Below are positions 7,648 through 23,176 of a DNA stretch of 61,383 nucleotides, piece by piece. This DNA comes from a virus (taxonomy: Duplodnaviria > Caudoviricetes). Both the position numbers and the translations under genes were made by a program. The notes under the pieces are model-generated. The model was not told where the DNA came from. It did no database searches and saw nothing but the letters and a program-made list of their open reading frames with translations. Where the stretch lies: IMG/VR virus record IMGVR_UViG_3300020044_005136, positions 1 through 61,383 of that record; one strand, given 5' to 3'. Position 1 is the stretch's first letter. Every line of letters starts with the position of its first letter.

Positions 7648-8547
7648 GTGAAACTGACCAATAACCACAATATACCTGCCACTTTTGTGAACGTCATAAA
7701 GCGTCCACAGTACTCACGCGGCGATGCAAACATCAGTGTTACAGAATTACTCTCATCCCCCCGTATTGTCCAGCTGCGCGCCAAGCATGAGGCTGAGACT
7801 GAACAGGATGTATCAGAGATGATCTGGTCGTTGTTCGGCTCCGCTGTGCATAACATTCTAGAGCACGGCAAGGATGAGCATCATATCGTAGAAGAGCGTT
7901 TGTTTACACAGTTTGAAGGATGGCGTCTGTCTGGCGCGATTGATCTTCAAGAGATCTATACAGATGGCGTAGTTATTTCAGACTACAAAGTCACCGGCGC
8001 ATGGTCAGTGATGCAGGAAAAAGATGATTGGGTTACCCAGCTAAACATCTATGCATGGCTCGTCGAGAAGTGCAAAAACGTGAAAGTAAAGAAGATCCAG
8101 ATCGTAGGCATTGTCCGTGATTGGCAAGCCCGTGACGCTGCGACTAGAGAAGGATACCCATCTTCCCCTGTCGCTGTATTAGAGATGCCCCTGTGGCCGT
8201 TTGAGGAGCGTGAAGCCTATATTAAAACCCGTATCCACCTACACAACGACGCGTACTTTGCTAGCAAAACAGGTTTGGAGTTTGCTGAATGTACGCCTGC
8301 TGAAATGTGGGAGAAACCTACTATTTATGCCGTGAGAAAGATTGGCGGCGTCCGTGCCAAAGCTTTATACGGCAACAAAGAAGAAGCACAAGAGGCTCTG
8401 GCTGCCTTGAATATTAAAAAGCCAGACTACGAAATAGAAGTACGTGACGGGGAGAGAACCCGTTGCGCACGCTACTGCCAGGTTAGTAAATTCTGTACGC
8501 AGAATCAAGAGTACTTAAAAACACATTCAATTGAGGAGCAACTGTGA
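7648..8547 (+). CDS. PD-(D/E)XK (RecB/Cas4-like) exonuclease
   Basis: GSAVH, SGAID, DYK and QLNIY motifs; C-terminal RCxxYCxxxxFC. Confidence 0.85.
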   Translation: MKLTNNHNIPATFVNVIKRPQYSRGDANISVTELLSSPRIVQLRAKHEAETEQDVSEMIWSLFGSAVHNILEHGKDEHHIVEERLFTQFEGWRLSGAIDLQEIYTDGVVISDYKVTGAWSVMQEKDDWVTQLNIYAWLVEKCKNVKVKKIQIVGIVRDWQARDAATREGYPSSPVAVLEMPLWPFEEREAYIKTRIHLHNDAYFASKTGLEFAECTPAEMWEKPTIYAVRKIGGVRAKALYGNKEEAQEALAALNIKKPDYEIEVRDGERTRCARYCQVSKFCTQNQEYLKTHSIEEQL

Positions 8548-9290
8548 AACAGATAGCATCAGCTTTAGTTAAAGCACAAAAGGCATTTGGCCCGGCGCTG
8601 AAGTCTAGTACCAATCCACACTTCCGTAATAAATACGCTGACCTATCCGCGTGCGTTGAAGCCGTTATTGATGGCCTTAACAACAACGGTATTTTCTTAA
8701 TGCAGCTGACGGATGAGCATCCTGATGGCATCAAGATTCAGACCGTATTCATCCACGAATCTGGTGAGCAAATGTCTTCTGGTTGGCTGTTTGTGCCGGC
8801 ATCCAAGGCAGACCCACAGGGTTTTGGTAGCGCACTGACCTACGCTCGCCGTTATAGCCTGATGGCAGCCTGTGGTATCGCTCCAGAAGACGACGACGGC
8901 AATTCAGGCAGCAAGCCTGTACCGGCCAAGCCAGCAGCACCAGTACCCGTACCAAAAGTGGTACAGCCACCTGTAGTAGAAGCACCTGTAGCACCACCAG
9001 TAGTAGAGGAAAAGAAAGCAGAAGCATTATCACCTAAGCTTGAAGGTAAGGAAGGTGAATGGCAGTTGAAGGTATCAGCGCAGCCAGACACAGATCTTAA
9101 GTCATGGATACAAGTTATCTTTGATGCGACTAAATTTGTGCTTAGTACAGCTTCAAATGTGAACGACGTAATGTCTATTTTTAGAAGTAACCGTATTGTA
9201 TTTGACCGGTTGCAGATTGAAAGTAAAGAATCTTACGATGAATTGATGGGCATTTTTAAACAATACAGGGAGAAACTCAATGTCAAATAA
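8544..9290 (+). CDS. erf: ERF-family single-strand annealing recombinase
   Basis: NPHFRNKYADL, HESGE and GSALTYARRYSL...DDDG signatures. Confidence 0.93.
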   Translation: MKQIASALVKAQKAFGPALKSSTNPHFRNKYADLSACVEAVIDGLNNNGIFLMQLTDEHPDGIKIQTVFIHESGEQMSSGWLFVPASKADPQGFGSALTYARRYSLMAACGIAPEDDDGNSGSKPVPAKPAAPVPVPKVVQPPVVEAPVAPPVVEEKKAEALSPKLEGKEGEWQLKVSAQPDTDLKSWIQVIFDATKFVLSTASNVNDVMSIFRSNRIVFDRLQIESKESYDELMGIFKQYREKLNVK

Positions 9291-10458: not shown

Positions 10459-10697
10459 ACTTTGGAGCAAACATTCAACCTGAAGTAAGGGCGTTCCCTG
10501 TATCAGATGAATATGGAACTTCGTACGGCATGACGCTGCGTGATTACTTTGCGGCAAAAGCCATGCAGGCAATGATATCTAACCCAGCCTGGTTTGGATC
10601 ACGCCGGTGGGATACGCAAGAAGAGATGGCAGAAGACTATGCGAACGAAGCATATTTATTTGCAACAGAAATGTTGTTTACCAGAGGAGATAGATAA
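10455..10697 (+). CDS. Conserved phage protein (GMTLRDYFAAKAMQ family)
   Basis: AFP...GMTLRDYFAAKAMQ motif; GGAGG RBS. Confidence 0.75.
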   Translation: MNFGANIQPEVRAFPVSDEYGTSYGMTLRDYFAAKAMQAMISNPAWFGSRRWDTQEEMAEDYANEAYLFATEMLFTRGDR

Positions 10698-10967
10698 ATG
10701 ATTATTCAAGCGCCAGAAATGAGAGAAGTTAAAAAGAAGACAGTTCAAATGGATCGTTGTACATATAGACCGCATAAGCTATTTGATTTTTTAATCTTAG
10801 AGTGCGGGTTTGAAACTGATTTCCACATTGCAAAGAAATTAAAAACAGCGCCGTCATCTATTAGCAGAATCAGGCATGGAAGATTTAAAGTTGGCCCGAC
10901 TATGATCCTAGCTATTTATGATGAAACTGATTTAACAATTGAAGACATAAGAGAACTTTTAAAATGA
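10698..10967 (+). CDS. XRE-like HTH protein
   Basis: DFHIAKKLKTAPSSISRIRHG helix-turn-helix pattern. Confidence 0.65.
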   Translation: MIIQAPEMREVKKKTVQMDRCTYRPHKLFDFLILECGFETDFHIAKKLKTAPSSISRIRHGRFKVGPTMILAIYDETDLTIEDIRELLK

Positions 10968-11188
10968 GAGCCGAACCTACTCGTGAATGGCAGGCTACGG
11001 TTGACCACACTAGAAGCGAAGCAATGCGAACTATTAGGGATATCCGTAGTGGCGTTGTTAACGAAGAGGATATAGATAAGATGCAAAACTTTATTCTATT
11101 CGCCTTAGCTTTAATGTTAATGGAAGGAGATAAAAAATGGGCAAGGGCGAAATTAAACGCGGAAATTATGAGCTTTCTTACAAAATAG
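10964..11188 (+). CDS. Hypothetical protein
   Basis: ORF with ATGA overlap. Confidence 0.65.
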   Translation: MRAEPTREWQATVDHTRSEAMRTIRDIRSGVVNEEDIDKMQNFILFALALMLMEGDKKWARAKLNAEIMSFLTK

Positions 11189-11400
11189 GCTTAAGTAAAG
11201 AACAGCTAGCGTTACTTAATTTATGTTCAATATGTAAGCTGCCAAGAGGATCTGGTCCAGGATATGTTACTCATGGCAAGTGTGCGGAACAACTAGCTGC
11301 ACTAGAAAACAAAAGTGATACATCTAAAAAAAGACATGCAAGCAAAGCAGTTTCTACAAAATATAAAAAAGGGAAATTACCACCTTGGATGTACGATTAA
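11137..11400 (+). CDS. Basic Cys/His-containing hypothetical protein
   Basis: AAGGAG RBS; CxxC..HxxC. Confidence 0.55.
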   Translation: MGKGEIKRGNYELSYKIGLSKEQLALLNLCSICKLPRGSGPGYVTHGKCAEQLAALENKSDTSKKRHASKAVSTKYKKGKLPPWMYD

Positions 11401-11413
11401 CTAAGGAAAAATC

Positions 11414-11623
11414 ATGCAAAACGAAATAAAAAAATTTGCTGAACAAGTGTACGGTAGAGAAGCAACAGAACAAGATTTAGCTTTCGCCAAGCTAGTGTAT
11501 GAAGCAGAGCGTCTGGCCTGTGCTAATTGTTGCGAGTATGAAGTTGAGCATGGATATAGCAATGCTGAACAAATAGGCGCTGCAAATTGTGGATTAGCAA
11601 TTTACGGAAGAGGGCAAGAATGA
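11414..11623 (+). CDS. Hypothetical protein (ERxxCA family)
   Basis: AAGGA RBS; ERLACA and RGQ C-terminus shared with neighbours. Confidence 0.7.
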   Translation: MQNEIKKFAEQVYGREATEQDLAFAKLVYEAERLACANCCEYEVEHGYSNAEQIGAANCGLAIYGRGQE

Positions 11624-11898
11624 AAAAACTACTACTAAGTTTAATTCTGTCTTACGGAACAGTTAACGCAGCAGAGTATTGGGTAATGCCTACAGAAGCA
11701 GGCGGCGAAGTTGTTCTAACAAGTACGAGATCAGAAATATGCGGGGATGCGTTGCTTGTAATGTATCTAGTTAAGTCCAATCAAGAAGTTGTGTATGGCT
11801 GCTGGGCTTTGATGGATGACAGGATACATGTGCGATTTGATAACGGGATGCGTAGAGCATATGACTTATCGAACTGGACAAAAAAGGGTAAGCCATGA
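11620..11898 (+). CDS. Secreted/periplasmic hypothetical protein
   Basis: Signal-peptide-like MKKLLLSLILSYGTVNA; GCW motif. Confidence 0.7.
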   Translation: MKKLLLSLILSYGTVNAAEYWVMPTEAGGEVVLTSTRSEICGDALLVMYLVKSNQEVVYGCWALMDDRIHVRFDNGMRRAYDLSNWTKKGKP

Positions 11899-12158
11899 AT
11901 AGAGATGAAATTATCCGCTTGGCAAAGGAAGCTGAGATCGTGCAACCTGGTTGGAATGCTACTGAGAACCAATGGCGGTCACTGGAGGCGTTTGCAACGT
12001 TAGTGGTAGCAGCAGAGCGCCAGCGCAAGGCATGGGATGCGAGGCATTGGACTGAGTATGAGCATGATGTGGCGGCAGCGGAGCGGGAGTCTTGCGCCAA
12101 GATGTTATCTGAAGAAGGTTGGCTGATGGCTGCGACATTAGTGAGGGTGAAGCAATGA
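11895..12158 (+). CDS. Hypothetical protein (RDEIIRLA...ERExCAK family)
   Basis: Shares N-terminal DNA and ERExCAK with the next gene. Confidence 0.7.
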   Translation: MNRDEIIRLAKEAEIVQPGWNATENQWRSLEAFATLVVAAERQRKAWDARHWTEYEHDVAAAERESCAKMLSEEGWLMAATLVRVKQ

Positions 12159-12412
12159 CACGAGATGACATTATCCGCTTGGCCCTTATGGGAGAGCGAA
12201 GCATGAAGCAACGGATCGAGTGGGCAGTAGACATGGAGCGCGAAGAATGTGCGAAGTTGTGTGAAGTTATTAGTGATGATGAATATTATCTTGGGCGGCA
12301 ATACGCTGACATGCTACGCGCAAGGGGACTAACTAGTTTACAGCGGCAACTGATTGATGCAGATGCGTTGCAGTCTGACCCTACGGGATTGAAAGCAAGG
12401 GGGCAGGTATGA
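12155..12412 (+). CDS. Hypothetical protein (RDDIIRLA...ERExCAK family)
   Basis: As above; ATGA overlaps. Confidence 0.7.
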   Translation: MTRDDIIRLALMGERSMKQRIEWAVDMEREECAKLCEVISDDEYYLGRQYADMLRARGLTSLQRQLIDADALQSDPTGLKARGQV

Positions 12413-12786
12413 CTGACAAAGAAGTAATGCAGATGGCGTTGGATGCGTTGCAGGGAAATTGGCGAACCGATGAAAGCGATAAAGCAATCGAAGCACTACG
12501 CGCAGCACTAGCGCAGCCTGAACCGAAGCCGGTGGCGTGGATGTTGACAGAACTTGATGGCACTCCATTGATTGATTGTGGCGATTTGGTTGTTAAGCAG
12601 CGCCCAGTTTTAGTAAGCGACAAAACGGACTGCATACCACTCTACACCGCCCCATCACAGCGCGAATGGCAGGGGTTGACGGATGAGGAGATACGCAACG
12701 AAGCCAACCATCATGTATTTGATGAGTCGTTTTTTAATGGCGCAGTATGGGCAAGAGGAAAAATAAAGGAGAAGAACAATGGCTAA
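12409..12786 (+). CDS. Modular protein A-B-C-D'
   Basis: MTDKEVMQMALD / ALRAALAQPEP / REWQGLTDEE / KIKEKNN. Confidence 0.8.
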   Translation: MTDKEVMQMALDALQGNWRTDESDKAIEALRAALAQPEPKPVAWMLTELDGTPLIDCGDLVVKQRPVLVSDKTDCIPLYTAPSQREWQGLTDEEIRNEANHHVFDESFFNGAVWARGKIKEKNNG

Positions 12787-12976
12787 GTTACCGTACACAA
12801 TCACCATTTGCCCAGATGAACCGAATCCTAAACAGTTCACGGCTTTGACCCCAGCAATTGTTCGAGCTTTGCGCTATACAAACGACTTGACGATAGACCA
12901 GAGGCAACACGTTTACCCGTCAGCACCGCAAGGAATTACAAGCATCAATACGCATAAGGAAAAGAATAGTGAATAA
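12779..12976 (+). CDS. Hypothetical cargo protein in the array
   Basis: Starts at the D-linker RBS; ends HKEKNSE. Confidence 0.7.
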   Translation: MAKLPYTITICPDEPNPKQFTALTPAIVRALRYTNDLTIDQRQHVYPSAPQGITSINTHKEKNSE

Positions 12977-13214
12977 GCCAACAGGTTCTTATAGTTCGTG
13001 GGAAAACACGATGTGCAATTCACTTGCGCCGGTAGGAGAGAAAACGAGATTAGCGTGGCACGATGGATACGCTAGTGCTAAAACCGAATGGCATGGGCTG
13101 ACGGATGAGGAGATGATGCAGAGTTACGTAGCGTTAAAAAGCGTAGCGGGGTTTTATTCGTTAGAAAAATATGCGCGTGATATCGAAGCCAAGCTAAAGG
13201 AGAAGAACACATGA
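12969..13214 (+). CDS. Modular protein x-C-D
   Basis: EWHGLTDEE ... IEAKLKEKNT; GTG start. Confidence 0.75.
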   Translation: MNKPTGSYSSWENTMCNSLAPVGEKTRLAWHDGYASAKTEWHGLTDEEMMQSYVALKSVAGFYSLEKYARDIEAKLKEKNT

Positions 13215-13705
13215 ACAAAATTCGCATCAAACAATATGAGCAAACAGCTGACGAGAAAGTATCTTTTAATGGTATTAAATGGCTACGTAAGTGGGATGTC
13301 AGTGTTCAATGTGATAGCGCAGAAGAAGCAGAAGCACTACGCGCCAGACTAGCGCAGCCAGAGCCAGCAGAATGTGATGGAGGCCAATGCGGGATCGGGG
13401 GGTATTGTAAAGAGTGTCCAAAGCCGCAGCAGTCGTGGTGCAAAGCAATGAACGGCTGTGACAGTAAATGCGAGGATTGTCCAGATAAGCCAAAACCGGA
13501 TTACGAAGCCGAGTTTATAAAAGATTGGAACGAAGGCAAAGTGCGGCGCGTGTTTGACGGTAAGCGAATGGTTCCAGAACGCGAATGGGTTGGGCTAACG
13601 CGTGAAGAACTTGCAGAGATAGCAGAGTTTCATTTTCACGGCGCGTTATCTGCAAGAGAATTTTATGACGACATCGAAGCCAAGCTAAAGGAGAAGAACA
13701 CATGA
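13211..13705 (+). CDS. Modular protein x-B-(Cys-rich)-C-D
   Basis: ALRARLAQPEP, CDGGQCGIGGYC, REWVGLT, IEAKLKEKNT. Confidence 0.8.
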   Translation: MNKIRIKQYEQTADEKVSFNGIKWLRKWDVSVQCDSAEEAEALRARLAQPEPAECDGGQCGIGGYCKECPKPQQSWCKAMNGCDSKCEDCPDKPKPDYEAEFIKDWNEGKVRRVFDGKRMVPEREWVGLTREELAEIAEFHFHGALSAREFYDDIEAKLKEKNT

Positions 13706-13863
13706 CAATGCACACTTACCCGCTAAACGATTTGCGCGAACATGAAACTGATAAAGGTGCATTTTGCTGGTGCAGACCGGAGTACGACGAGGAGTATGAC
13801 TTGTACGTACATAGAAGCATGGATGGGCGCGAAGAATACGAAGAAGGAAGGAAGCCGACATGA
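13702..13863 (+). CDS. Small His/Cys protein (53 aa; PLNDLREH..CWC..H family), paralogue of 14919-15119
   Basis: Read manually; ATGA overlaps at both ends; too short for the ORF track. Confidence 0.75.
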   Translation: MTMHTYPLNDLREHETDKGAFCWCRPEYDEEYDLYVHRSMDGREEYEEGRKPT

Positions 13864-14138
13864 GCGATCCAGAAATGACCACGTTTGGTATGTACCCGAA
13901 CTGGGGTGTTGAATACTGCAAATCATATGCCGAGCAACTTAGAGATAAGACACGCGCAAACCGAGCAGAACATGCGGCGGAGTGCATTGAATATCTTTTA
14001 AGTGTGGTTCAGAAAGAATGGGTTGGGCTGACTGATGAGGAAGTTATGTCACTGTTGCCGGGAGCGGTCAGACTACCACCGGGTTGGGTGGACACAGTTC
14101 GAGCCATAGAAGCCAAGCTGAAGGAGAAGAACACATGA
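13860..14138 (+). CDS. Modular protein x-C-D
   Basis: KEWVGLTDEE ... IEAKLKEKNT. Confidence 0.75.
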   Translation: MSDPEMTTFGMYPNWGVEYCKSYAEQLRDKTRANRAEHAAECIEYLLSVVQKEWVGLTDEEVMSLLPGAVRLPPGWVDTVRAIEAKLKEKNT

Positions 14139-14503
14139 CTGACAAAGAAGTAATGCAGATGGCGTTGGATTTGGAAAAACTAGCAGATAGATTTAGTGAA
14201 GGCTGGCATGCTGGGATTCAAATTGACGCATCAGATGTTATGTTGCTTCTTGATTCCGCTGAAGCACTACGCGCAGCACTAGCGCAGCCAGAACCAGAGC
14301 CGGCGGCAGACAAGTACCTGATGGAAGTTGAATGCACAAAGTGTGGAGCAAAGCAGGATGGCATCTTGACCGTCAACGCCCCACAACAACGCAACTGGCA
14401 GAGGCTGACGGAGCAAGACTTTTCGGCTATCAATCAGTCTTGTTCAACCAAACTTCAGGCTGCGACAAGCGCAGAGTCAATACTAAAGGAGAAGAACACA
14501 TGA
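14135..14503 (+). CDS. Modular protein A-B-(CxxC)-C-D
   Basis: All four linkers present; start at the D-linker ATG 14135. Confidence 0.8.
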   Translation: MTDKEVMQMALDLEKLADRFSEGWHAGIQIDASDVMLLLDSAEALRAALAQPEPEPAADKYLMEVECTKCGAKQDGILTVNAPQQRNWQRLTEQDFSAINQSCSTKLQAATSAESILKEKNT

Positions 14504-14922
14504 CCGACAAAGAAGTAATGCAGATGGCGTTGGATATTATGGAGTCTGCAATTAAAGCTGGTGATTGGGTTGTTGACGGTGCTTGTGATCCTGATTTGGT
14601 TTTGAATGCACTACGCGCAGCACTAGCGCAGCCTGAACCGGCAGAATGTGACGGCGGGCAGTGTGGTATTGGCGGATATTGTAAGCAGTGTCCAAAGACG
14701 CAGCCTGAACAGGATTACGAAGCCGAGTTTATAAAAGATTGGAACGAAGGCAAGGTGCGGCGCGTGTCTGACGGCAAAAGAATGGTTCCTGAACGCGAAT
14801 GGCAAGGGCTGACGGATGAGGAATACGAAGCAATGGCAGAGCAGTATGTAACTAACTGCTATTTCGATACATTGGAATACGCAAAAGCCATCGAAGCAAA
14901 GCTAAAGGAGAAGAACACATGA
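14500..14922 (+). CDS. Modular protein A-B-(Cys-rich)-C-D
   Basis: All four linkers; variable segments shared with 13211-13705. Confidence 0.8.
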   Translation: MTDKEVMQMALDIMESAIKAGDWVVDGACDPDLVLNALRAALAQPEPAECDGGQCGIGGYCKQCPKTQPEQDYEAEFIKDWNEGKVRRVSDGKRMVPEREWQGLTDEEYEAMAEQYVTNCYFDTLEYAKAIEAKLKEKNT

Positions 14923-15119
14923 CATGGCAAGTATGGACAAACATAATGCAGAAGAACGGGGCTTCGACTCATGTAGTGCCATTGAATGATCTTCGAGAGC
15001 ATGTGGAAGACGCAACGTGCTGGTGTAACCCGCGAGTTGACGAGGAGTTGAACTTAGTTACGCACAACAGCGCAGACAATAGAGAGGCGTTTGAAACAGG
15101 GGAAAGGAAGCCGACATGA
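14919..15119 (+). CDS. Small His/Cys protein (PLNDLREH..CWC..H family)
   Basis: Paralogue of 13702-13863; same RKPT C-terminal linker. Confidence 0.75.
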   Translation: MTWQVWTNIMQKNGASTHVVPLNDLREHVEDATCWCNPRVDEELNLVTHNSADNREAFETGERKPT

Positions 15120-15526
15120 CTGACCGCGAACTATTGCAGCAGGCGTTGGATGCGTTGCAGGGAAATTGGCGAACCGATGAAAGCGATAAAGCAATCGAAG
15201 CACTACGCGCCAGACTAGCGCAGCCTGAGAACGACTTTAATCCAGATTGGGACGCAATGGCAGTCATGGTTGAAGAGCAGCAGCGCATGGCAAAGCGGAT
15301 TGAGGAACTCGAAGCTCGACTAGCGCAGCCAGAGCAGGAGCCGGTGGGCATTAACAAAGTTATTATAGATTCAATACGTGATTCGTCGGAAATTGTAGCG
15401 CCGCCAAAGCGCGAATGGGTTGGGCTGACTGATGAGGAAGCCAGAGAACTTTGTGTGGCGAATGTACCGTATGTTATAGATATGGTTCGTGCCCTTGAAG
15501 CCAAGCTAAAGGAGAAGAACACATGA
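15116..15526 (+). CDS. Modular protein A'-B-B-C-D
   Basis: Two B linkers; first variable segment identical to that of 12409-12786. Confidence 0.8.
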   Translation: MTDRELLQQALDALQGNWRTDESDKAIEALRARLAQPENDFNPDWDAMAVMVEEQQRMAKRIEELEARLAQPEQEPVGINKVIIDSIRDSSEIVAPPKREWVGLTDEEARELCVANVPYVIDMVRALEAKLKEKNT

Positions 15527-15708
15527 GTAGAGTACATGCAGTGACGGAAGACATTCAATTCACAGCAAAGGTCGCGTCGTTCACACCACTGCCGACTGAC
15601 ATGCTTGTTAAAGAGTTCTGTGCGTGGCTACAGGAGCGCGGCAAGGAACACAACTTTCTTGTTTGGCGCGTCACCATCGAAGGTGCAAGTACGGACTACA
15701 ACCTATGA
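15523..15708 (+). CDS. Hypothetical cargo protein, last gene of the array
   Basis: Starts at the D-linker ATG. Confidence 0.65.
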   Translation: MSRVHAVTEDIQFTAKVASFTPLPTDMLVKEFCAWLQERGKEHNFLVWRVTIEGASTDYNL

Positions 15709-15711
15709 CGG

Positions 15712-15784
15712 GTACTAACGGCCTAGCTTCAGGCCGAGTTCCCTTGTGACCACTAGGCCGCCAGACCAAGGGACAACCTAGTAC
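15712..15784 (+). ncRNA. Candidate pseudoknotted structured element closing the array
   Basis: GTACTA/TAGTAC, CGGCCTAG/CTAGGCCG and crossing TCCCTTG/CAAGGGA pairings. Strand inferred from neighbouring genes. Confidence 0.5.
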
Positions 15785-15825
15785 ATTTATTGTAAAGCAT
15801 AATAAATTAATTGTAAGGAAAAAGG

Positions 15826-16011
15826 ATGACAACACACAACGATATAACAGGCGATGCAATAAAAACAAAAGAAATTACGGACAAGTTCCGTGAGAACTTC
15901 GATAAGATATTTAACCCACCATGCGTGCGTTGCGGTAAAGCCAGCCCAGCCGACGTGCACACATGCACACCAAAGGAGAATATAAATGAAGGCATTTACA
16001 GTAACATTTAA
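15826..16011 (+). CDS. Small hypothetical protein (NDITGDAIKTK family)
   Basis: AAGGA RBS; common phage motif plus CxxC. Confidence 0.6.
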   Translation: MTTHNDITGDAIKTKEITDKFRENFDKIFNPPCVRCGKASPADVHTCTPKENINEGIYSNI

Positions 16012-16177
16012 TGGCGACAAAGATCTTACAAAAATAAAATTTACAGGAGAATTTTTACAAGAACACGTAATAACAAAGCTCGATATTCTTAAAGATTCTA
16101 TTTACGAACTTCAAGAAATATACAATAAAACATTAGTAGATTGGACGGGCGTAGAAGGCGGAGAACTTGATGATTGA
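15986..16177 (+). CDS. Hypothetical protein
   Basis: AAGGAG RBS. Confidence 0.65.
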   Translation: MKAFTVTFNGDKDLTKIKFTGEFLQEHVITKLDILKDSIYELQEIYNKTLVDWTGVEGGELDD

Positions 16178-16418
16178 TAATGTAAATAACCCAGCGCATT
16201 ACAAAGATGGTGGAGTTGAAACAATTGATTTTATTGAGGCAAAGGGTTTAGGGTTTAATCTAGGCAATGTAGTTAAATACATTAGTCGTGCTGGGAAGAA
16301 AGGAAACAAATTAGAAGACTTAAAGAAGGCGCAATGGTATCTAGCAAGAGAAATAGAGAATGAGCAGAAGGTAAAACCTGGCTCATGGGTATACACAGAT
16401 GGGAAAGAATTTAAATAG
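16167..16418 (+). CDS. DUF3310-like (SaV/T7 gp1.7-related) protein
   Basis: VNNPAHY...ETID...GNVVKYISRAGKK...EDLKKAQWYL. Confidence 0.85.
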   Translation: MMIDNVNNPAHYKDGGVETIDFIEAKGLGFNLGNVVKYISRAGKKGNKLEDLKKAQWYLAREIENEQKVKPGSWVYTDGKEFK

Positions 16419-16427
16419 GAGAATAAA

Positions 16428-16610
16428 ATGTTAAGAGATGGAAAGTTTATTAAAGAAGATCCAATTCATATTAGTGCGCACTATGTTCCAGTATTCAGGG
16501 AAAGAACTTTTACGCCAGAAGAAAGATTTACACAAGATGTTTTACTAGGGAATACTCCATACACCACATCTAAAATTACTTTGTTCTTTTCTAGATTGCT
16601 TAGTTTGTGA
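16428..16610 (+). CDS. Hypothetical protein
   Basis: AGGAG RBS. Confidence 0.6.
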   Translation: MLRDGKFIKEDPIHISAHYVPVFRERTFTPEERFTQDVLLGNTPYTTSKITLFFSRLLSL

Positions 16611-16804
16611 GAAACAATTTAGTAAAAATTGCGAAGCGGGCAGCTAAAGAAGAAGGATTAATTTACGCCCCAGATATAGCCGCGCTCGCTTGTTTGCAAC
16701 GTATCTCAAAAATTTTAATACAAAATGAACGAGAAAGTTGTGCGCAATTATGTGAAGATTTTGATGCCCCACATTTAGCAAAAGCCATTAGAGAAAAGGA
16801 ATAA
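16607..16804 (+). CDS. Hypothetical protein (ERESCAQLCE family)
   Basis: GTG start overlapping the upstream stop; ERExCA motif. Confidence 0.6.
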   Translation: MRNNLVKIAKRAAKEEGLIYAPDIAALACLQRISKILIQNERESCAQLCEDFDAPHLAKAIREKE

Positions 16805-16806
16805 GT

Positions 16807-17115
16807 ATGAGCTACAGTATGATTGAACTAGACATTATCCGATGGAGTGAAGCCAGAGGAATCATTGACAACAGCACCAGCGCAACTCAATTACTCAAAG
16901 CATTCAGTGAAATGGGTGAGCTGGCAGACGCAATCCTAAAGAAAGATCGGACTGCAATCATTGACGGACTAGGTGATGTAATGGTTTGCCTAATTAACTG
17001 TGCGGCCATTGAGGATCTAGATCTAACTAAATGCTTACAGCACGCTTACAATGAAATCAAAGACCGTAAGGGTTATTTAAATAAAGAAGGGGTATTCATT
17101 AAGGATGAACAATAA
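16807..17115 (+). CDS. MazG-like NTP pyrophosphohydrolase
   Basis: SEMGELADA...DGLGD...AYNEIKDRKG motifs. Confidence 0.85.
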   Translation: MSYSMIELDIIRWSEARGIIDNSTSATQLLKAFSEMGELADAILKKDRTAIIDGLGDVMVCLINCAAIEDLDLTKCLQHAYNEIKDRKGYLNKEGVFIKDEQ

Positions 17116-17377
17116 GCTCACAGCAAAGGAACGTGAGCATATAGGGAGGGTAAAAGCTCTCCCTTGTTCAGTCTGCGATGCGCCGGCACCAAGCTACGCA
17201 CACCACGTTAAGCAGCACCAACAGTACACGGTGGTAGCACTGTGCTACGACTGCCACCAAGGGCCACTGTTAGGCATCCACGGCCAGCGGCGTATGTGGG
17301 CAATCAAGAAGATGGATGAACTTGATGCCCTAGCCATTACCGTAGAACGCTTATTAGAGACCTGCACTTTTCCGTAA
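17105..17377 (+). CDS. Ref/DUF968-like HNH-type Zn-binding nuclease
   Basis: LPCSVC...AHH...LCYDCH motifs. Confidence 0.7.
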   Translation: MNNKLTAKEREHIGRVKALPCSVCDAPAPSYAHHVKQHQQYTVVALCYDCHQGPLLGIHGQRRMWAIKKMDELDALAITVERLLETCTFP

Positions 17378-20300
17378 ATCTTTTACATCTATAGACTTAA
17401 GAATATCCTGCTCTGTCTCGCGAAGATATTTAATCTCAGCAGCCTTTTCAGCTGAAGTGTATTCGCTAGATGGAGCATTCCTAATGTAGGTAATATTTGC
17501 GCGAATTCTAGACAAGTACTTACCAACCTTATCAACAGTCTTCTCTAGTGCCAGCTTATCAATGACGCCTTCTTTTTCAAGGTACGCATCAATCTGATCT
17601 GGGCTGCGTTTCTTTAAGTCATTTAATGTATTGGCTACCCTATCAACTTCATCCCGCAACACATAGAAGTCTGTCTTCAAGGAAGATTCATATTCCTTAG
17701 TCATGAATGAGCCGGCACCAGGCACCGCTGCAATAGCCTCTTTAAGGGATAGCTCAGGCCGCTCAATCATTGGATCACTATGCAGGATAGGGTTAGTCAG
17801 AAGGATAGTTAACCCGCCAACAGATCCAAATATCCCGCGCAGTAAATGATCAGCAGCGATAGGCGACACCATTCCTGTTTGACCAAACAACTTAGCTAGC
17901 TCAGAAGTACTGTCATTAAACTGGCGCTCAATCTCTAATCCTTTTTGCCACTGACCAATCAATGGCTTACCTTGGAATAAGTTGTAATTGATAGCGACTT
18001 CAACGATAGGCTTAATCACTTGCGGTACAGGCGTTGGAGCAAGTAGTGCAGTTCCGAGCGCAGCTTTCATTGAGTCTCTAAACTTACGGCCATCTTCAGA
18101 ACCCTTATCCGTCAGCAACAAATAGGTATGCTCAGTAATTACTTTAGGAATGGTGAATAGATCCATACGAAGTGGAATACCAAAACCACCAGTACCTGGG
18201 ATCATCAGCATCCTGTCACGGATTGTTGTGGTCTTCCGCAGGTAATCCTCATCATCACCATTCATCATGGCATACAGGAGGGATAGCGTCATTACAGAGC
18301 CAGTGGTGGCCGCTAGTGTTGCCAGAGCATCCTTGCGATCACGCGGGGAGATGCCTACGCCACTGATGGTTTTAATGGCTACATTCTGCGCTGCTAAGTA
18401 AGCATTAAAGAATGGGATAACCTGACCAGCCATAGCAAGAAACTTACTGCTACCACGCCGGCGGAAGTTAATAACTTCAAATGCTTTCTCAAGTGCTTCA
18501 GCAGGGTTTACGCCTTGGGAGATGGATGCCTCATACACAGCCTGCCGTACAGCGTTATCAGACGCCATAGCGATATGCTCTAGTATCCCCTTGATCTTAG
18601 CCTTAATACCTGGGCTAGCACGCATACCAGAATAAACTTCAGCATCAACACGAGCAGCAGCAGATGAAAAGTCTTTTACGCCTGTAGCGCCATACATCTT
18701 AAGCTTCTCATGCGTTAAGCTCTTACCGCGTAAGGTTTGGATAAACTCTTTGACGGCCAGCACTGGAATTCTCAAAGCATACTGAGGCTTTAATCCAGAT
18801 GAAAAGATGGAAGCAAACGCGTCCTGTGGCAACTGAGATACAGCAAACAATGGGTTAAGCACAATCGACTGACGCAGTAAGGTAGCCATCTTAGATGCAT
18901 ACTTAATGGTTGGAATAGCCACTGCTTCCAATCCATTGAATGCGTCCATATACATGGGGTCTTCCATGTTATAGAACTCTTGCTTACCATCACGCCAGAT
19001 GCTTACGTTGTTAGCGCCAGGCTTAGGTGCATCCATCTTGGTGCCAAGATTCATCTCAACCGCAGCATCAGCCAGCGCCACAGCAGAACGGTTACGGATA
19101 GAGCGATTGATAGCGTATTGCATCCAACGCGCCATGTTATCGAACACATCGTTAACCGGCTTGGATGAACCCTTGATCATCTTTTCTTTGGACTGAACCT
19201 GCAATCCACGAACAAACTCTTTCGGGCCCGCAAACTTCTCTAACTGTTCTTCACGGTAGAAAGGAACATAGTCGATGTTATCTAACATCTTCTCTGCATC
19301 TTCTTTTGTCCACAGCCCGCTATCCACAAGAACATCAATAGTGTTCTTACGCATTCCATTCCACGTATCAACAAGACCTTTAAGCTCTGGAATTGTTTCA
19401 AACAATCCTAAGCCAGTATCAATCTGATCATCCGTCATATGGATAAACTTAGGCTTCTCACCAGCCAAAGAAGTTAATCTAGATATCTGGTTTCTAATAT
19501 CTTTCTTTTGGTCGGCAGTAAGCTGCTCCGTTGATAGACGGTAATTTAAATCCGCGATATCACTTGGAGCGTTTTCAATGGCTTCATTAAACTTAACCAA
19601 AGACTTCAGGCGTTTAGCTTCAAAAGCTTTATGTGCTACAGCCTCGGAGTCTTCTTTGGATAGGCCATACTTTTCAGCAATAACATCAAGCTGCTTAGAC
19701 AGAGATACAAAGTTGTCCTTATCTTTTTTAACTTCCCATTTGTGCATAGCCGAATTGTATTCGACGCGGCCATGAATTAAAGCCTGCGAAGCAACAGCAT
19801 CACCATGTACAGTTTGGCTAAGGCTAATATTAAGCAAGTTACCAATGCGCTCTTCCACACCACGCCCAGCTTCGGCAATAGCACGACGGTATGAATTGTT
19901 TAATGCAGCATCAGCAGAGAACGACCAAGTCTGAACCTTATCTATAAACTTGGTGTAAGTCTTATAGCCTTCCTTGGCAGTAAGGCCTGGGTTCTGCGCA
20001 GAGTTCTTAAGCAGCTCTTTAGTTTTCTCAAAGGATGTTTGCTCCGGCGGCTTACGTACAAAGCCCATATCCTTGATAGCATCCAGCGCAGATTTACCTG
20101 CTGCCTTATTTATGTTTTCAAACGAGTTAAATTGAACACCATTACTAGTGACTAGATTTACAATCATTTCTTTGGTGATGCGATTCTTGCTACCGTTCAT
20201 AATGTCTTTGAACATTTTCTGAACAGCATAACGGTTATCAAAACCAATGACGTTTTTTAACCCTTCCCACAGCCGAGCAATAGCCCTTTTAAATTTATCC

Positions 20301-23176
20301 CATGCAGTGCCAAGTTCAGAAGCCATAAGATTTTCAGCATTTACCGCCCAGAACTCAGATGGGTTAATAAACTGATACATATCATAACTTGGCAGCAGCT
20401 CCTGCGCCTTACGAAAATTGATTTTTTTTGGATTATCAATAAAATCCATAACCGCATTAAAATACTTTTGATGCTCCTCATCTGGATGCTTTTTGATAGC
20501 AGCCTGTAAACCCTTAAACCACGCTTGAGCAACAACTAACCGTTGCTCTGAATTCATCATTTGTTCTAAGCTATGAGCCAATTCGTGACGAATAGTCGCT
20601 GGGTCATTGATGCCACTGGTTCCCTTATACAAACGCACAATTCTTTCAAATGGGAAAAACTGACCAGCGGCTGGTGTATTTTCATCAGTTTTAACACTAA
20701 GCAACAAGCCTTCTAGTACATCAGGCATCTTGTTGTAAGCTAAATTGATGACGTTAAACACCTCGTCAGATATATTCCCCGCATCAAATTCCAACGCAGC
20801 CTTAGCTAAAAATTTCTCAGCACTATCTTGGCGAGGTTTAGTGGCCTTAATTGTAGAGCTAAGGTCCTTAGCCTGTTGTATCAAGCGAGTTACAGATGCT
20901 TGCATACTTAGATCTACCTTGCCTTCGGCCACTTGTTTTGGCACGCGGGCTAACTTTGCCCGCAAACCAGCATATTCCTTAATCTGTTGTTCGCGTATAG
21001 CTTTACTACCAAAGATCAAATCCCCATCTTGTTCAGCAAGAGATGGCTCCTCAATATTCATTAAGAAATTAAGTGGCTCTGTTCTTTCAACAGCATCTCT
21101 TATTCTTTGGATAGTTTCTTCAGGCTTGGCGCTTTTACTTACATCCAAGCCAATATCTCTTGCAACATTATTTAATTTTGCAGTGCTAAGTGGCACACCA
21201 CCTTTATCAATGGCAGCAAGTAAATCTTTTGCAATTTTTATTTCAGGAGCTACACTTACTTCTTCTGCCGCCCCATCTTCTCTTTGTACTGATTCAGCAG
21301 CTCCAGCCTCGCCTTCGGGGACAAACTCTTTAGATGCTTCATCAGCTGCTCTTTGCTCATTTGTTGCTTCTTGGATGGCTGCGTTAACATCGTCTATCTC
21401 CAAATGTTCTTTAAGAAGGTTTTCAAGTTCCAATGACGTATTGCCTAACTGTTTAATTTCTAATTCAGTTTCATACGTATAGTGATTGGAGTCGCGAAGC
21501 TTCTGCTTAATAATTTCTTGGGCATCATTTTCTTTTTGCATTTGCTCAGTAGGATCTGAGTTAGCAATAACGTCACTACGCAAATCAAAAGGCAAAAAGT
21601 TATCTAATGATCCATTGCGCACTAAAGTTGAAAGCGATATGCCTTCACCATCTTTACTCTGCAAAGGCTTAAATTTAAGGCTTACACCAATATCCTTAAC
21701 ATCAGACTCAGTTAGCACGCCTTTTTTGTTTGGCATCAATGCAGTCCTGAGATTATCAAATCCCCTTGGCGCATTTTTTAGTTTATTTAATTCTTTAGTA
21801 ACATCTTCAAGATTTTTTTCTGTTTCTAATACATCTTCTGTTTTGGTTGCTGGCTCTTCACGCAAAGCTTCTTGCTTACGTAAGCTACGCAATTCTTTTG
21901 CATCAACAGACTCTTCAAATTCAGGTGGCAGCGCAGCCTCAACAGGAGCTGGAGTAATTTCTTCTGTTGTGGGTGCTGGTGGCGGAACTCCTCCAGTAAC
22001 CGGAGGGGCTATTTCCTCAGTAGCAGGCGGCGTTACTTCTTCTTCAGGGGGAGTTACTTTCTGTTGCCCAGCTTCCTGCTCTGCCATTGCCTTATCTACG
22101 ATCTGTATAGCCTGCTCAAGAGATACATCTCCATCACGAACAGCTTCGGCCAATCTAGCTAACTCTGGGTTGGTTCTAGGATCAGCCGTCTTCAATAACT
22201 CAATTATTTTCTGGGTTTTATTTTCAACAGGAGCCTGTGCTTGTTCACCACCACCTAATGGAGAGACAACAGCAGAGCCAAGCAATCCCATCAAACCTTC
22301 TTTGGTTGCCGCACCAGCCACGCCCTTTAAAGTATCTACATCAATACCTTCACGCTGGGCTGCAATGTTTGCCGCAATCTGTTCTTGGGTAGCTTGACCT
22401 GCCTCAGTTCCAAATTCAGAAGCAGCAGCAGCACCTTTGCGCGCAAAACCTTTTACGTTGCCAGAAAGAATCTGTTCAATACCATACTTACCAACAACTG
22501 CACCAATACCAGCACCAGTAACAATCTGCCCCCAGTTTTTACCTAGATAATCTTGGGCTTCAGCAGCAATCTTAGCCGCTTCTTCCGGTGGCATTTTAGT
22601 CTTCTCAAGTTCAGACTTAACGTTGTCGTAGATGGATCCCTTAACTGCGCCAGTACCCTCAATAGCGCCAAGCACTACGTTGAATACTGTACGGGCAGCA
22701 ACCGCAGCACGAGCCTCGCCAGCACCAGGGATTAACAGGCTAAGAAGGTTAGGAATGATTGAGCCAACAGCCTGTGCCGTAGACTGAATAGGCGCAGCAA
22801 GAACGGATTTAGCAGCAACCTTAGCTTCAGCAAGTGGCCCTTCTTTAGCAGCAGCCTCTTCTTGTTGCCGGTAATACTCTATTTCCTTTTGACGTTCTGG
22901 CGTATACAACCCAGACAAATGCTTCTGTGCTTCAGCCATTCCTCTGGATGCCGCATTGTCAGCGCCAAATACATCAGCAATAGACTTTGCTACACCAAGA
23001 GTACCTTGTTGTAAGGAGAGAGCTGTATCACCTAAAGAGAATGGAGCCTTGGGTGCAGGCGCATTAGCCCGTATTGATGGAAGGATATCGCTTTCAATAG
23101 CACTTGCTATTTGGTCCTGAGTCATGCCATCAGGAAACTCTACAATACCAACTCCAACAATATTTATGCGCTGCAT
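17354..23176 (-). CDS. Giant polyvalent (ejected) virion protein with zincin-like metallopeptidase and probable C-terminal LPD38 domain
   Basis: 1940 aa; IRHELAH (HExxH) with downstream EFWA; INFRRRG..IPFFNA..KPIVEVAINYNLF LPD38-like segment. Confidence 0.75.
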   Translation of the reverse strand: MQRINIVGVGIVEFPDGMTQDQIASAIESDILPSIRANAPAPKAPFSLGDTALSLQQGTLGVAKSIADVFGADNAASRGMAEAQKHLSGLYTPERQKEIEYYRQQEEAAAKEGPLAEAKVAAKSVLAAPIQSTAQAVGSIIPNLLSLLIPGAGEARAAVAARTVFNVVLGAIEGTGAVKGSIYDNVKSELEKTKMPPEEAAKIAAEAQDYLGKNWGQIVTGAGIGAVVGKYGIEQILSGNVKGFARKGAAAASEFGTEAGQATQEQIAANIAAQREGIDVDTLKGVAGAATKEGLMGLLGSAVVSPLGGGEQAQAPVENKTQKIIELLKTADPRTNPELARLAEAVRDGDVSLEQAIQIVDKAMAEQEAGQQKVTPPEEEVTPPATEEIAPPVTGGVPPPAPTTEEITPAPVEAALPPEFEESVDAKELRSLRKQEALREEPATKTEDVLETEKNLEDVTKELNKLKNAPRGFDNLRTALMPNKKGVLTESDVKDIGVSLKFKPLQSKDGEGISLSTLVRNGSLDNFLPFDLRSDVIANSDPTEQMQKENDAQEIIKQKLRDSNHYTYETELEIKQLGNTSLELENLLKEHLEIDDVNAAIQEATNEQRAADEASKEFVPEGEAGAAESVQREDGAAEEVSVAPEIKIAKDLLAAIDKGGVPLSTAKLNNVARDIGLDVSKSAKPEETIQRIRDAVERTEPLNFLMNIEEPSLAEQDGDLIFGSKAIREQQIKEYAGLRAKLARVPKQVAEGKVDLSMQASVTRLIQQAKDLSSTIKATKPRQDSAEKFLAKAALEFDAGNISDEVFNVINLAYNKMPDVLEGLLLSVKTDENTPAAGQFFPFERIVRLYKGTSGINDPATIRHELAHSLEQMMNSEQRLVVAQAWFKGLQAAIKKHPDEEHQKYFNAVMDFIDNPKKINFRKAQELLPSYDMYQFINPSEFWAVNAENLMASELGTAWDKFKRAIARLWEGLKNVIGFDNRYAVQKMFKDIMNGSKNRITKEMIVNLVTSNGVQFNSFENINKAAGKSALDAIKDMGFVRKPPEQTSFEKTKELLKNSAQNPGLTAKEGYKTYTKFIDKVQTWSFSADAALNNSYRRAIAEAGRGVEERIGNLLNISLSQTVHGDAVASQALIHGRVEYNSAMHKWEVKKDKDNFVSLSKQLDVIAEKYGLSKEDSEAVAHKAFEAKRLKSLVKFNEAIENAPSDIADLNYRLSTEQLTADQKKDIRNQISRLTSLAGEKPKFIHMTDDQIDTGLGLFETIPELKGLVDTWNGMRKNTIDVLVDSGLWTKEDAEKMLDNIDYVPFYREEQLEKFAGPKEFVRGLQVQSKEKMIKGSSKPVNDVFDNMARWMQYAINRSIRNRSAVALADAAVEMNLGTKMDAPKPGANNVSIWRDGKQEFYNMEDPMYMDAFNGLEAVAIPTIKYASKMATLLRQSIVLNPLFAVSQLPQDAFASIFSSGLKPQYALRIPVLAVKEFIQTLRGKSLTHEKLKMYGATGVKDFSSAAARVDAEVYSGMRASPGIKAKIKGILEHIAMASDNAVRQAVYEASISQGVNPAEALEKAFEVINFRRRGSSKFLAMAGQVIPFFNAYLAAQNVAIKTISGVGISPRDRKDALATLAATTGSVMTLSLLYAMMNGDDEDYLRKTTTIRDRMLMIPGTGGFGIPLRMDLFTIPKVITEHTYLLLTDKGSEDGRKFRDSMKAALGTALLAPTPVPQVIKPIVEVAINYNLFQGKPLIGQWQKGLEIERQFNDSTSELAKLFGQTGMVSPIAADHLLRGIFGSVGGLTILLTNPILHSDPMIERPELSLKEAIAAVPGAGSFMTKEYESSLKTDFYVLRDEVDRVANTLNDLKKRSPDQIDAYLEKEGVIDKLALEKTVDKVGKYLSRIRANITYIRNAPSSEYTSAEKAAEIKYLRETEQDILKSIDVKDLRKSAGL

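Follow-up and report, generated by a model that had tools for sequence, protein, structure and literature searches.

The window analysed here is a whole contig of 61,383 nt of DNA from a virus of the Caudoviricetes (Duplodnaviria), positions 1 to 61,383 of IMG/VR record IMGVR_UViG_3300020044_005136, and the element in question is the D unit, a 33-nt sequence that recurs at the junctions between small genes. Between positions 11587 and 15708 of the + strand, 14 small genes form an unbroken chain in which stop and start overlap at each of the 13 junctions (by 4 nt at 11 and by 8 nt at two), and the D junctions belong to this chain. The last 18 nt of the unit, AAGGAGAAGAACACATGA (hereafter the 18-mer), occur in the window in six exact + strand copies, at 13197, 13688, 14121, 14486, 14905 and 15509. 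No copy arose in 100 dinucleotide-preserving shuffles of the window (0 expected versus 6 present). Each copy reads AAG GAG AAG AAC ACA TGA, encodes K-E-K-N-T plus a stop codon and closes an open reading frame (ORF), and at each the next ORF opens with the ATG of ATGA, overlapping the upstream stop by 4 nt (6/6). The Shine-Dalgarno (SD) sequence AAGGAG stands 8 nt 5' of the downstream ATG in all six copies, inside the upstream gene. The repeat reaches about 33-41 nt, its upstream part reading ATC GAA GCC AAG CTA ... with some synonymous variation; the corresponding repeat family, D2, has six copies with 68-100% identity to the reference copy. According to the predicted unpaired probabilities, five of the six copies rank in the top 8% of the 18-nt windows of the region.

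All six units lie on the + strand. Unit 1 (13182..13214), with the codons I-E-A-K-L-K-E-K-N-T and a stop, ends gene 12969..13214 and starts gene 13211..13705; its exact 33-mer is the sequence found in 103 viral contigs. Unit 2 (13673..13705) ends 13211..13705 and starts 13702..13863, which matches phrog_2864 in a PHROG profile scan (E 1.5e-13). Unit 3 (14106..14138) ends 13860..14138 and starts 14135..14503, a gene of the MTDKEVMQ type. The upstream half of unit 4 (14471..14503; ..AESILKEKNT-stop, 68% identity over 41 nt) is the most diverged, and this unit ends 14135..14503 and starts 14500..14922. Unit 5 (14890..14922) closes the latter gene and opens 14919..15119, again a phrog_2864 match (E 1.2e-16), while unit 6 (15494..15526) ends 15116..15526 and starts 15523..15708, an unrelated 61-aa ORF. 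Four kinds of gene stand behind the six copies; that at 13211 is without the MTDKEVMQ start, with which those at 14135 and 14500 begin (MTDKEVMQMALD). The preliminary description had proposed a linker of six near-exact copies, combining AAGGAG, an 8-nt spacer and ATGA and followed by differing genes, and both the linker and the variety of its cargo were confirmed.

Two degenerate copies are additional to those six. The first (12756..12786, + strand, repeat family D8; ..KIKEKNNG-stop) retains AAGGAGAAGAAC, with the copy at 12766, and the ATG at 12779 opens gene 12779..12976 with an 8-nt overlap. This ATG, 5 nt before the stop, is displaced 4 nt upstream, and the equivalent NG-stop form recurs among relatives. 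The second is a D-like tail, AAGGAAAAGAATAGTGAATAA (12956..12976, + strand; ..HKEKNSE-stop), on a protein that does not carry the W.GLTDEE motif described below, and the GTG start of 12969..13214 lies inside it. A homologue of this protein in a related 14-kb locus (L055; related loci are numbered with the prefix L) finishes in ..TKEKNT-stop with the exact 18-mer.

Relatives were collected by a codon-neutral scan of IMG/VR for the peptide W-x-G-L-T-D-E-E, which matched at least 120 contigs; 85 sites in 80 contigs, with 84 distinct ORF ends, were analysed. Nearly all of these ORFs (81/84) close, 30-50 residues further on, with a tail of the form L-[KR]-x-x-N, which in most cases reads ..AIEAKLKEKN. 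The family layout is W.GLTDEE, about 25-40 variable residues, then AIEAKLKEKN. A protein search with the product of 15116..15526 gave 3521 matches at E ≤ 0.001 among 8000 candidates scored, and the 120 homologues listed from it are all without a Pfam domain and without an informative name. Ten genes of the array had no Pfam match above the cut-off, and in PHROG the D-bearing genes matched only weakly (E 0.0018-0.0058), with no family assigned. Only L104, K134 and N135 are invariant in an alignment of 50 homologues, which is full of insertions, deletions and replacements between the conserved blocks. An AlphaFold2 model of 15116..15526 based on 50 homologues (mean predicted local distance difference test score 71.8, predicted template modelling score 0.27) shows helices in series with no confident global fold, and the last helix (residues 120-135) is modelled to end at N135. 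The family, whose small, mosaic phage proteins are very numerous and undescribed, has D as the coding end of its genes. Literature searches for the D peptide and nucleotide motifs, for coupling combined with mosaicism and for the linker sequences of modular theory, with supplementary files outside the search, returned no description of the element.

Among GenBank phages, a nucleotide search with the 4-kb region gave short linker matches only (3 records), and a 47-nt D query matched 5 records. D sites of the family type were also seen in a bacterial genome collection, on short contigs (L293, L299, L314, L319, L320, L328, L331, L340, L290 and L277) whose bins are labelled Polynucleobacter, Rhodoferax, Burkholderiales, Betaproteobacteria, Aquiluna and Nanopelagicales. 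The contigs are probably of phage origin and were placed in the bins of freshwater hosts, which offers a lead to the host range.

In relatives, D is regularly followed by a start codon. At 72 of 84 sites the start of the next ORF (at least 30 aa long) falls within the end of the family gene, with ATGA in 54, and the same holds for 78 of 86 sites, again with ATGA in 54, in a second sample that was likewise not conditioned on the KEKNT codons and came from the first 80 of at least 120 matches. The residues that follow N depend on where the start codon lies: NNA-TGA gives T, A, I, V, G, K or L, an end reading ..ATGGNTRA gives NG, HG or YG, and one reading AATGAGTGA gives E, with others as well. 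No other part of the tail tracks the start codon in this way. Amino-acid variants of the tail retain an SD core (GGAG, AGGA or GGGG): KERN is written AAGGAGCGC, KRRN AAACGGAGG, RSKN contains CGGAGT or AGGAGT, KGLN AAAGGA and KGKN AAGGGG. In the annotation deposited for DSL-LC04, a phage isolated from a lake, two coding sequences overlap by 4 nt at a D copy. As a separate observation, in L044 and L122 a change of E to Q loses the core, and a tail KLKQKNG[FY]AEEK[NS]T-stop is appended with a new GAGGAG before ATGA.

Translational coupling in its classical form uses an overlapping ATGA stop/start with the SD inside the upstream gene. D has both the overlapping stop/start and an SD at functional distance inside the upstream gene, a geometry identical to the classical one (SD 8 nt before an ATG that overlaps TGA), and by this arrangement the ribosome that ends the upstream gene could start the next gene directly. 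D differs from an ordinary operon junction in that the latter belongs to one fixed gene pair, whereas D joins dozens of gene pairs. The preliminary description had regarded D as an expression-ready junction behind which any recombined ORF would be coupled. The SD, the 8-nt spacer, the overlapping start and the diversity of downstream genes bear this out, while coupling and plug-in recombination are still read from the arrangement of the sequence. The findings that it had named as contrary, KEKNT conserved with varied codons and no SD or downstream genes always alike, are not what the relatives show. Its further suggestion, that the EKNT peptide may be a by-product of selection on the nucleotide signal, was not upheld: L-K-E-K-N is conserved in the last helix, K134 and N135 belong to the invariant columns, N is retained wherever the start codon sits, and LKEKN occurs without the GGAG core in a few members, as in L228, where AAAGAAAAAAAT encodes the peptide without GGAG in the K-E codons.

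The same protein-level constraint fits another explanation, by which D would be no more than the C-terminal end that a paralogous protein family conserves in a compactly organised genome, its identity a matter of ancestry or codon preference, with no role in cassette exchange. The invariant K and N of KEKN, the independence of N from the start position and the members that keep LKEKN without an SD all fit this view; so do the internal C linker of the family, which is equally frozen with no ribosome-binding role, and the other junctions of the array, which also carry an SD and ATGA, as in any packed phage operon. We nevertheless regard it as rather unlikely, and the flanks of D speak against it. 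A complete scan of viral contigs for the exact 33-mer yielded 103 contigs with 109 sites. The 150-nt nucleotide flanks fall into 53 clusters upstream (of 104) and 52 downstream (of 104), with 72 different combinations among the 99 sites that have both flanks; six upstream types precede one downstream type, and five downstream types follow one upstream type. The ORFs behind the exact 33-mer form 32 protein clusters, and those downstream of D in relatives form 82 clusters among 134. Site pairs around the 18-mer were aligned in register and scored for at least 100 nt of homology at ≥80% identity, upstream-only homology being that which ends no more than 10 nt after ATGA. Nine pairs were homologous upstream only, nine downstream only and two on both sides, so that one-sided homology exceeds two-sided homology by 18 to 2; at ≥90% identity the counts were five, four and one. 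A C-terminus that was simply inherited also accounts poorly for GGAG kept through amino-acid changes and for out-of-frame, appended and intergenic copies of D. In L199 an ORF from outside the family enters D out of frame and stops within it, and a homologue of gene 14919 follows; in L054 a family tail with a decayed core is followed by a second, intact 18-mer; L017 and L104 have intergenic copies.

Individual pairs show homology ending at the unit. L044 and L079 share 300 nt at 95% identity up to ATGA and 0 nt beyond. Compared with the window copy at 14121, L055 matches over 273 nt upstream (98.3%) and 0 nt downstream; compared with that at 15509, it matches over 299 nt downstream (96.8%) and just 24 nt upstream. 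At the nucleotide level this locus resembles the window only in the D array, where the cassettes are 91-99% identical and their order is changed, and further cassette orders were found in L166, L199, L169 and L028. Insertions, deletions and replacements among relatives are bounded by the repeated motif. A different arrangement was noted in L153 (11191-11214, - strand onward), in which two family genes are fused in frame at D with ACAGAA in place of ACATGA; D can also serve as an inter-domain linker.

Copies of D within one source resemble each other more than copies from different sources. At nine synonymous positions the likeness was 0.826 within and 0.740 between sources, a value reached in 1 of 2000 permutations, and the upstream 60 nt of the compared copies are unrelated (0.30). 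This is the pattern of concerted evolution, and such homogenisation within a genome despite unrelated flanks is a further point against a C-terminus conserved by descent. So is the behaviour of another junction of the same array, GGAAGGAAGCCGACATGA, taken as a control: it was present in 31 contigs, with the same upstream gene in 26 and downstream ORFs in three clusters. High partner diversity is therefore not general to array junctions. Upstream of the array, 3.9 kb before the first exact D unit, the window encodes an ERF-superfamily single-strand annealing recombinase (8544..9290, + strand; PF04404, E 2.2e-22, 80.1 bits, cut-off 25). Phage recombinases of the Rad52-like/Erf type have been reported to be efficient on diverged sequences and to drive mosaicism (PMC3945230). 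In a Pfam scan of ten other ORFs between 8.5 and 17.4 kb the matches were ERF, DUF3310 and MazG only; the window carries phage-type genes. Taken together, the breakpoint data fit exchange at D, short of proving it.

Our favoured explanation is that D is a dual-coded, translationally coupling gene junction that also acts as a crossover patch for cassettes; we consider it likely, with coupling and recombination both deduced from sequence. At the protein level, the nine codons I-E-A-K-L-K-E-K-N finish the last helix of the C-terminal module. At the RNA level, the K-E codons are preserved as an AAGGAG SD with the next eight bases as spacer, and NNA-TGA contains the next ATG. Because D is near-identical at the end of each gene throughout the family, it may also serve as a homology patch for the exchange, deletion and duplication of cassettes, probably through phage single-strand-annealing recombinases such as the encoded ERF protein. 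A gene arriving behind D would inherit a strong ribosome-binding site (RBS).

Several observations weigh against this explanation. Every family gene ends in D, and alignments are bound to extend to the end of the unit whatever the position of the real crossover. Those IMG/VR contigs that come from related samples are only partly independent. In a few members (L228, L029, L132) LKEKN is retained where an SD or a start close by is missing, the copy at 15509 is predicted to be structured (18th percentile of unpaired probability), and the codon skew at K-E is not creditable to the SD alone. Of 43 viral sites without W.GL, 14 match the common D form at 10 or more of the 15 nt upstream and 29 are without a D-like extension (<10/15). 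Finally, a bacterial genome collection contains the exact 18-mer as well, in no fewer than 120 contigs from many phyla, and at 73 of 122 bacterial sites the ORF in the frame of D is shorter than 45 aa, i.e. the site is intergenic.

These bacterial sites bring in convergence as an alternative: AAGGAG, an A-rich 8-nt spacer and ATGA make an optimal RBS, which could have been reached repeatedly with no exchange. An ORF of at least 30 aa lies behind the bacterial 18-mer at 117 of 122 sites, and the string precedes unrelated genes in many phyla, among them a conserved gene beginning MRHTIIDASQLELEEK.. in several Clostridia bins. The gene table of a Burkholderia phage likewise gives AAGGAGAAGAacaGTG as an RBS (PMC3483164). 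A motif filter called 19 of the 122 bacterial sites family-like, and at least five of these were false by eye (four Nonomuraea records with ..CEAVLKEKNT, and L352). Since it is found, mostly in intergenic positions, in unrelated bacterial genomes, the 18-mer taken by itself is a strong RBS of a generic kind, convergent across bacteria, while the 33-nt unit is the specific element. The preliminary description had proposed a search of phage genomes for the 18-mer; that search recovers diverse downstream genes, as it had anticipated, and it over-counts, the 18-mer being unspecific. KEKNT tails on unrelated viral proteins (19/129) were considered as proof of portability and lost weight with the bacterial control; their presence may be partly convergence. 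For the family itself, convergence is very improbable. Its identity spans 33 nt, including nine synonymous positions without an RBS function, and the 15 nt upstream match the common D form at a mean of 11.05 of 15 positions in the viral family, compared with 7.65 at viral sites without W.GL and 4.88 at bacterial non-family sites. Convergence cannot account for one exact 33-mer in 103 contigs.

Codon usage was examined next to these counts. In the first sample, the first K of the K-E pair is AAG in 57 of 59 cases and the E is GAG in 48 of 59, against same-ORF backgrounds of 38% and 40%; in the neighbouring codons, the E of IEA is GAG in 6 of 56 and the K of EAK is AAG in 10 of 47. This skew was withdrawn as proof of selection on the SD: the internal C linker, which encodes W.GLTDEE and is without an evident translational role, is equally frozen. 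Its codons are GGG (70/85), CTG (69/85), ACG (70/85), GAT (80/85) and GAG (74/85), with backgrounds of 15, 19, 15, 45 and 36%, and the form GGGCTGACGGATGAGGAR accounts for 47 of the 85 codon-neutral matches. The C linker precedes no gene start, and the 60 nt that follow it are unrelated (mean identity 0.29). Copies in the window lie at 12664-12691, 13086-13113, 13583-13610, 14016-14043, 14797-14824 and 15413-15440. Codons of D outside the SD are frozen too (GAA 29/29, GCC 25/29). As the same freezing affects the C linker and the non-SD codons of D, it is a family-wide property of the linkers that needs a cause other than the ribosome, and it points to recombination or homogenisation of all linkers. 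The C linker may be an intragenic crossover site, and D is one of several frozen DNA-level linkers, the sole one with an evident translational role.

Freezing in excess of what an SD needs would also be expected if the C and D linkers were recognition sites for a factor of their own, for example a site-specific recombinase, a homing nuclease or a regulator that binds RNA. The start-associated sequences (SAS) of Cluster K mycobacteriophages are likewise suspected of binding a factor (PMC3203893). We give this idea little credence, as D is purine-rich and on direct reading has no inverted-repeat symmetry, there was no Rfam match at permissive thresholds in 11000-17000, and the ten array genes are without a significant Pfam match. 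The Pfam scan of ten ORFs between 8.5 and 17.4 kb, with the remainder of the window outside it, contained no site-specific recombinase or nuclease. An extension of the favoured explanation is more tentative and, in our estimation, still a minority prospect: motifs A to D, rather than being protein motifs of the usual kind, could be the DNA linkers of a recombinase-driven system of combinatorial shuffling that acts within genes (C) and between genes (D). Exchange would keep the linkers identical and the intervening segments replaceable, and D would ensure translation.

Public sequencing runs contain parts of the array. Some portion of 12400-15800 was present in 20 runs of 15 studies, the largest share being 0.36 of the sampled words. 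Logan contigs were compared from three DNA runs and one RNA-library run; such contigs show presence, not transcription or crossover. All four runs hold pieces identical to window cassettes with 0 differences (13692-13863, 14129-14334, 14794-14922 and 15251-15433), and none of the Logan pieces listed from the four runs spans the array. Among 24 listed loose contig ends (of 334), 11 are no more than 5 nt away from a D unit and about seven are at C linkers. In one RNA-library contig, 14902-15103 is followed immediately by 13848-14138, the same gene order as in L055. Three uses of these runs were set aside: contig joints as evidence of recombination, where the sides measured 20-34 nt and sides below 30 nt were not used; depth peaks at D bins, which may reflect the repeat alone and were not used for ranking; and habitat, which was dropped with the shares being small.

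The array has junctions of other types, which likewise carry an SD and ATGA. The control junction GGAAGGAAGCCGACATGA (13846..13863, + strand; ..GRKPT-stop) ends 13702..13863 and starts 13860..14138, and a second copy of this type (15102..15119, + strand; ..ERKPT-stop) ends 14919..15119 and starts 15116..15526; both belong to repeat family D14. The contigs with the GRKPT-stop junction encode an identical 40-residue C-terminal part of the phrog_2864 protein in 26 of 31 cases. The small phrog_2864 proteins themselves, which contain a CxC motif (13702-13863, 14919-15119 and loci L395-L422), are nearly invariant. Another recurrent type of small gene, beginning MTRDDIIRLA... and containing ..FAALVAAxEREACAK.. 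(window 11895-12412), often adjoins D-bearing genes, and in the window, L055, L166 and L169 it ends in a conserved junction of its own, AAGGGGGCAGGTATGA (..ARGQV-stop).

A scan of 10500-16500 detected no terminator-like site on the + strand, either in the 11587..15708 chain or in the rest of the scanned region, and one weak promoter-like site on that strand; promoter and terminator counts were both below the shuffle means. Downstream of the chain, a 117-nt intergenic stretch (15709-15825) is kept in L055 and L199 with 83-91% identity within longer matches. The stretch after 15708 has no Rfam match and folds no better than its shuffles (z -1.21). An AT-rich segment lies immediately 5' of the gene at 15826, and the early-gene block is directly followed by a 1940-aa ORF on the - strand (17354-23176).

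The modular theory of phage evolution places linker or boundary sequences at the borders of modules. D resembles such linkers as a short shared border sequence that can act as a substrate for homologous exchange, with a phage annealing recombinase present in the window; it differs in that these linkers are rarely tied to a defined shared sequence, whereas D is a specific 33-mer with a coding and a translational role. Integron cassettes offer another likeness, being promoterless, arranged head to tail and expressed from upstream signals. However, attC sites are imperfect inverted repeats, whereas D, read directly and with no inverted-repeat search run, is rich in purines and lacks self-complementarity. 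Among the ten ORFs scanned (8.5-17.4 kb, the whole window not being searched) there is no integrase, and exchange at D would use general homology.

Two phage systems are closer. Promoter-early stem-loops (PeSLs) of T4-type phages are described as intergenic units of promoter and terminator, and PeSL mini-circles have been physically demonstrated (PMC2839356, PMC4122927). Like D, the PeSL described there is a short, conserved sequence with a regulatory role that recurs through a hyperplastic region rich in small genes whose function is unknown; where relatives differ by an insertion, a deletion or a replacement, the changed stretch ends at the motif, which supplies the expression signal of the new gene. 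In contrast, PeSLs are intergenic and act on transcription, whereas D lies inside coding sequence, encodes the end of a helix and would act on translation. D has no promoter-like or terminator-like feature, and the 10500-16500 scan of the array found no composite of promoter and stem-loop terminator.

The SAS of Cluster K mycobacteriophages have a 13-bp consensus, GGGATAGGAGCCC, located 3-7 bp before start codons in 11-19 copies per genome (PMC3203893). In the account given there, they are asymmetric AGGAG repeats just 5' of the starts of non-structural genes from different families, in one orientation; the upstream stop sometimes overlaps the SAS, and conservation extends beyond 16S pairing. 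D is likewise a conserved repeat of one orientation before different families (six copies on the + strand; 82 clusters among 134 ORFs in relatives). Its sequence does not correspond to the consensus GGGATAGGAGCCC, with which it has the AGGAG core alone in common. The SAS are confined to one phage cluster, and that account presents them neither as the coding tail of a single protein family nor as a mosaic breakpoint, whereas D spans 33 nt, is protein-coding and occurs in 103 viral contigs as the 33-mer and in at least 120 as the 18-mer. D resembles PeSLs and SAS in its apparent way of working and is a member of neither group.

For motif searches, the recurrence of an 18-nt RBS-plus-start string by convergence in bacteria is a caution that such searches need a control. 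If the favoured explanation is true, D would be a defined, widespread site at which phages swap accessory genes without loss of expression, and would be for translation what the PeSL cassettes are for transcription. Modular phage evolution by way of linkers, an old hypothesis, would become directly testable, including in the isolated D-bearing phage DSL-LC04, and if the more tentative shuffling system also exists, it would be a concrete, sequence-defined case of the long-proposed linker-mediated modular exchange. For the unnamed protein family, with its thousands of members and no Pfam entry, the most conserved positions would be constrained by nucleic-acid and protein function together, a dual constraint that matters for how motifs are read in annotation and in the building of protein families.

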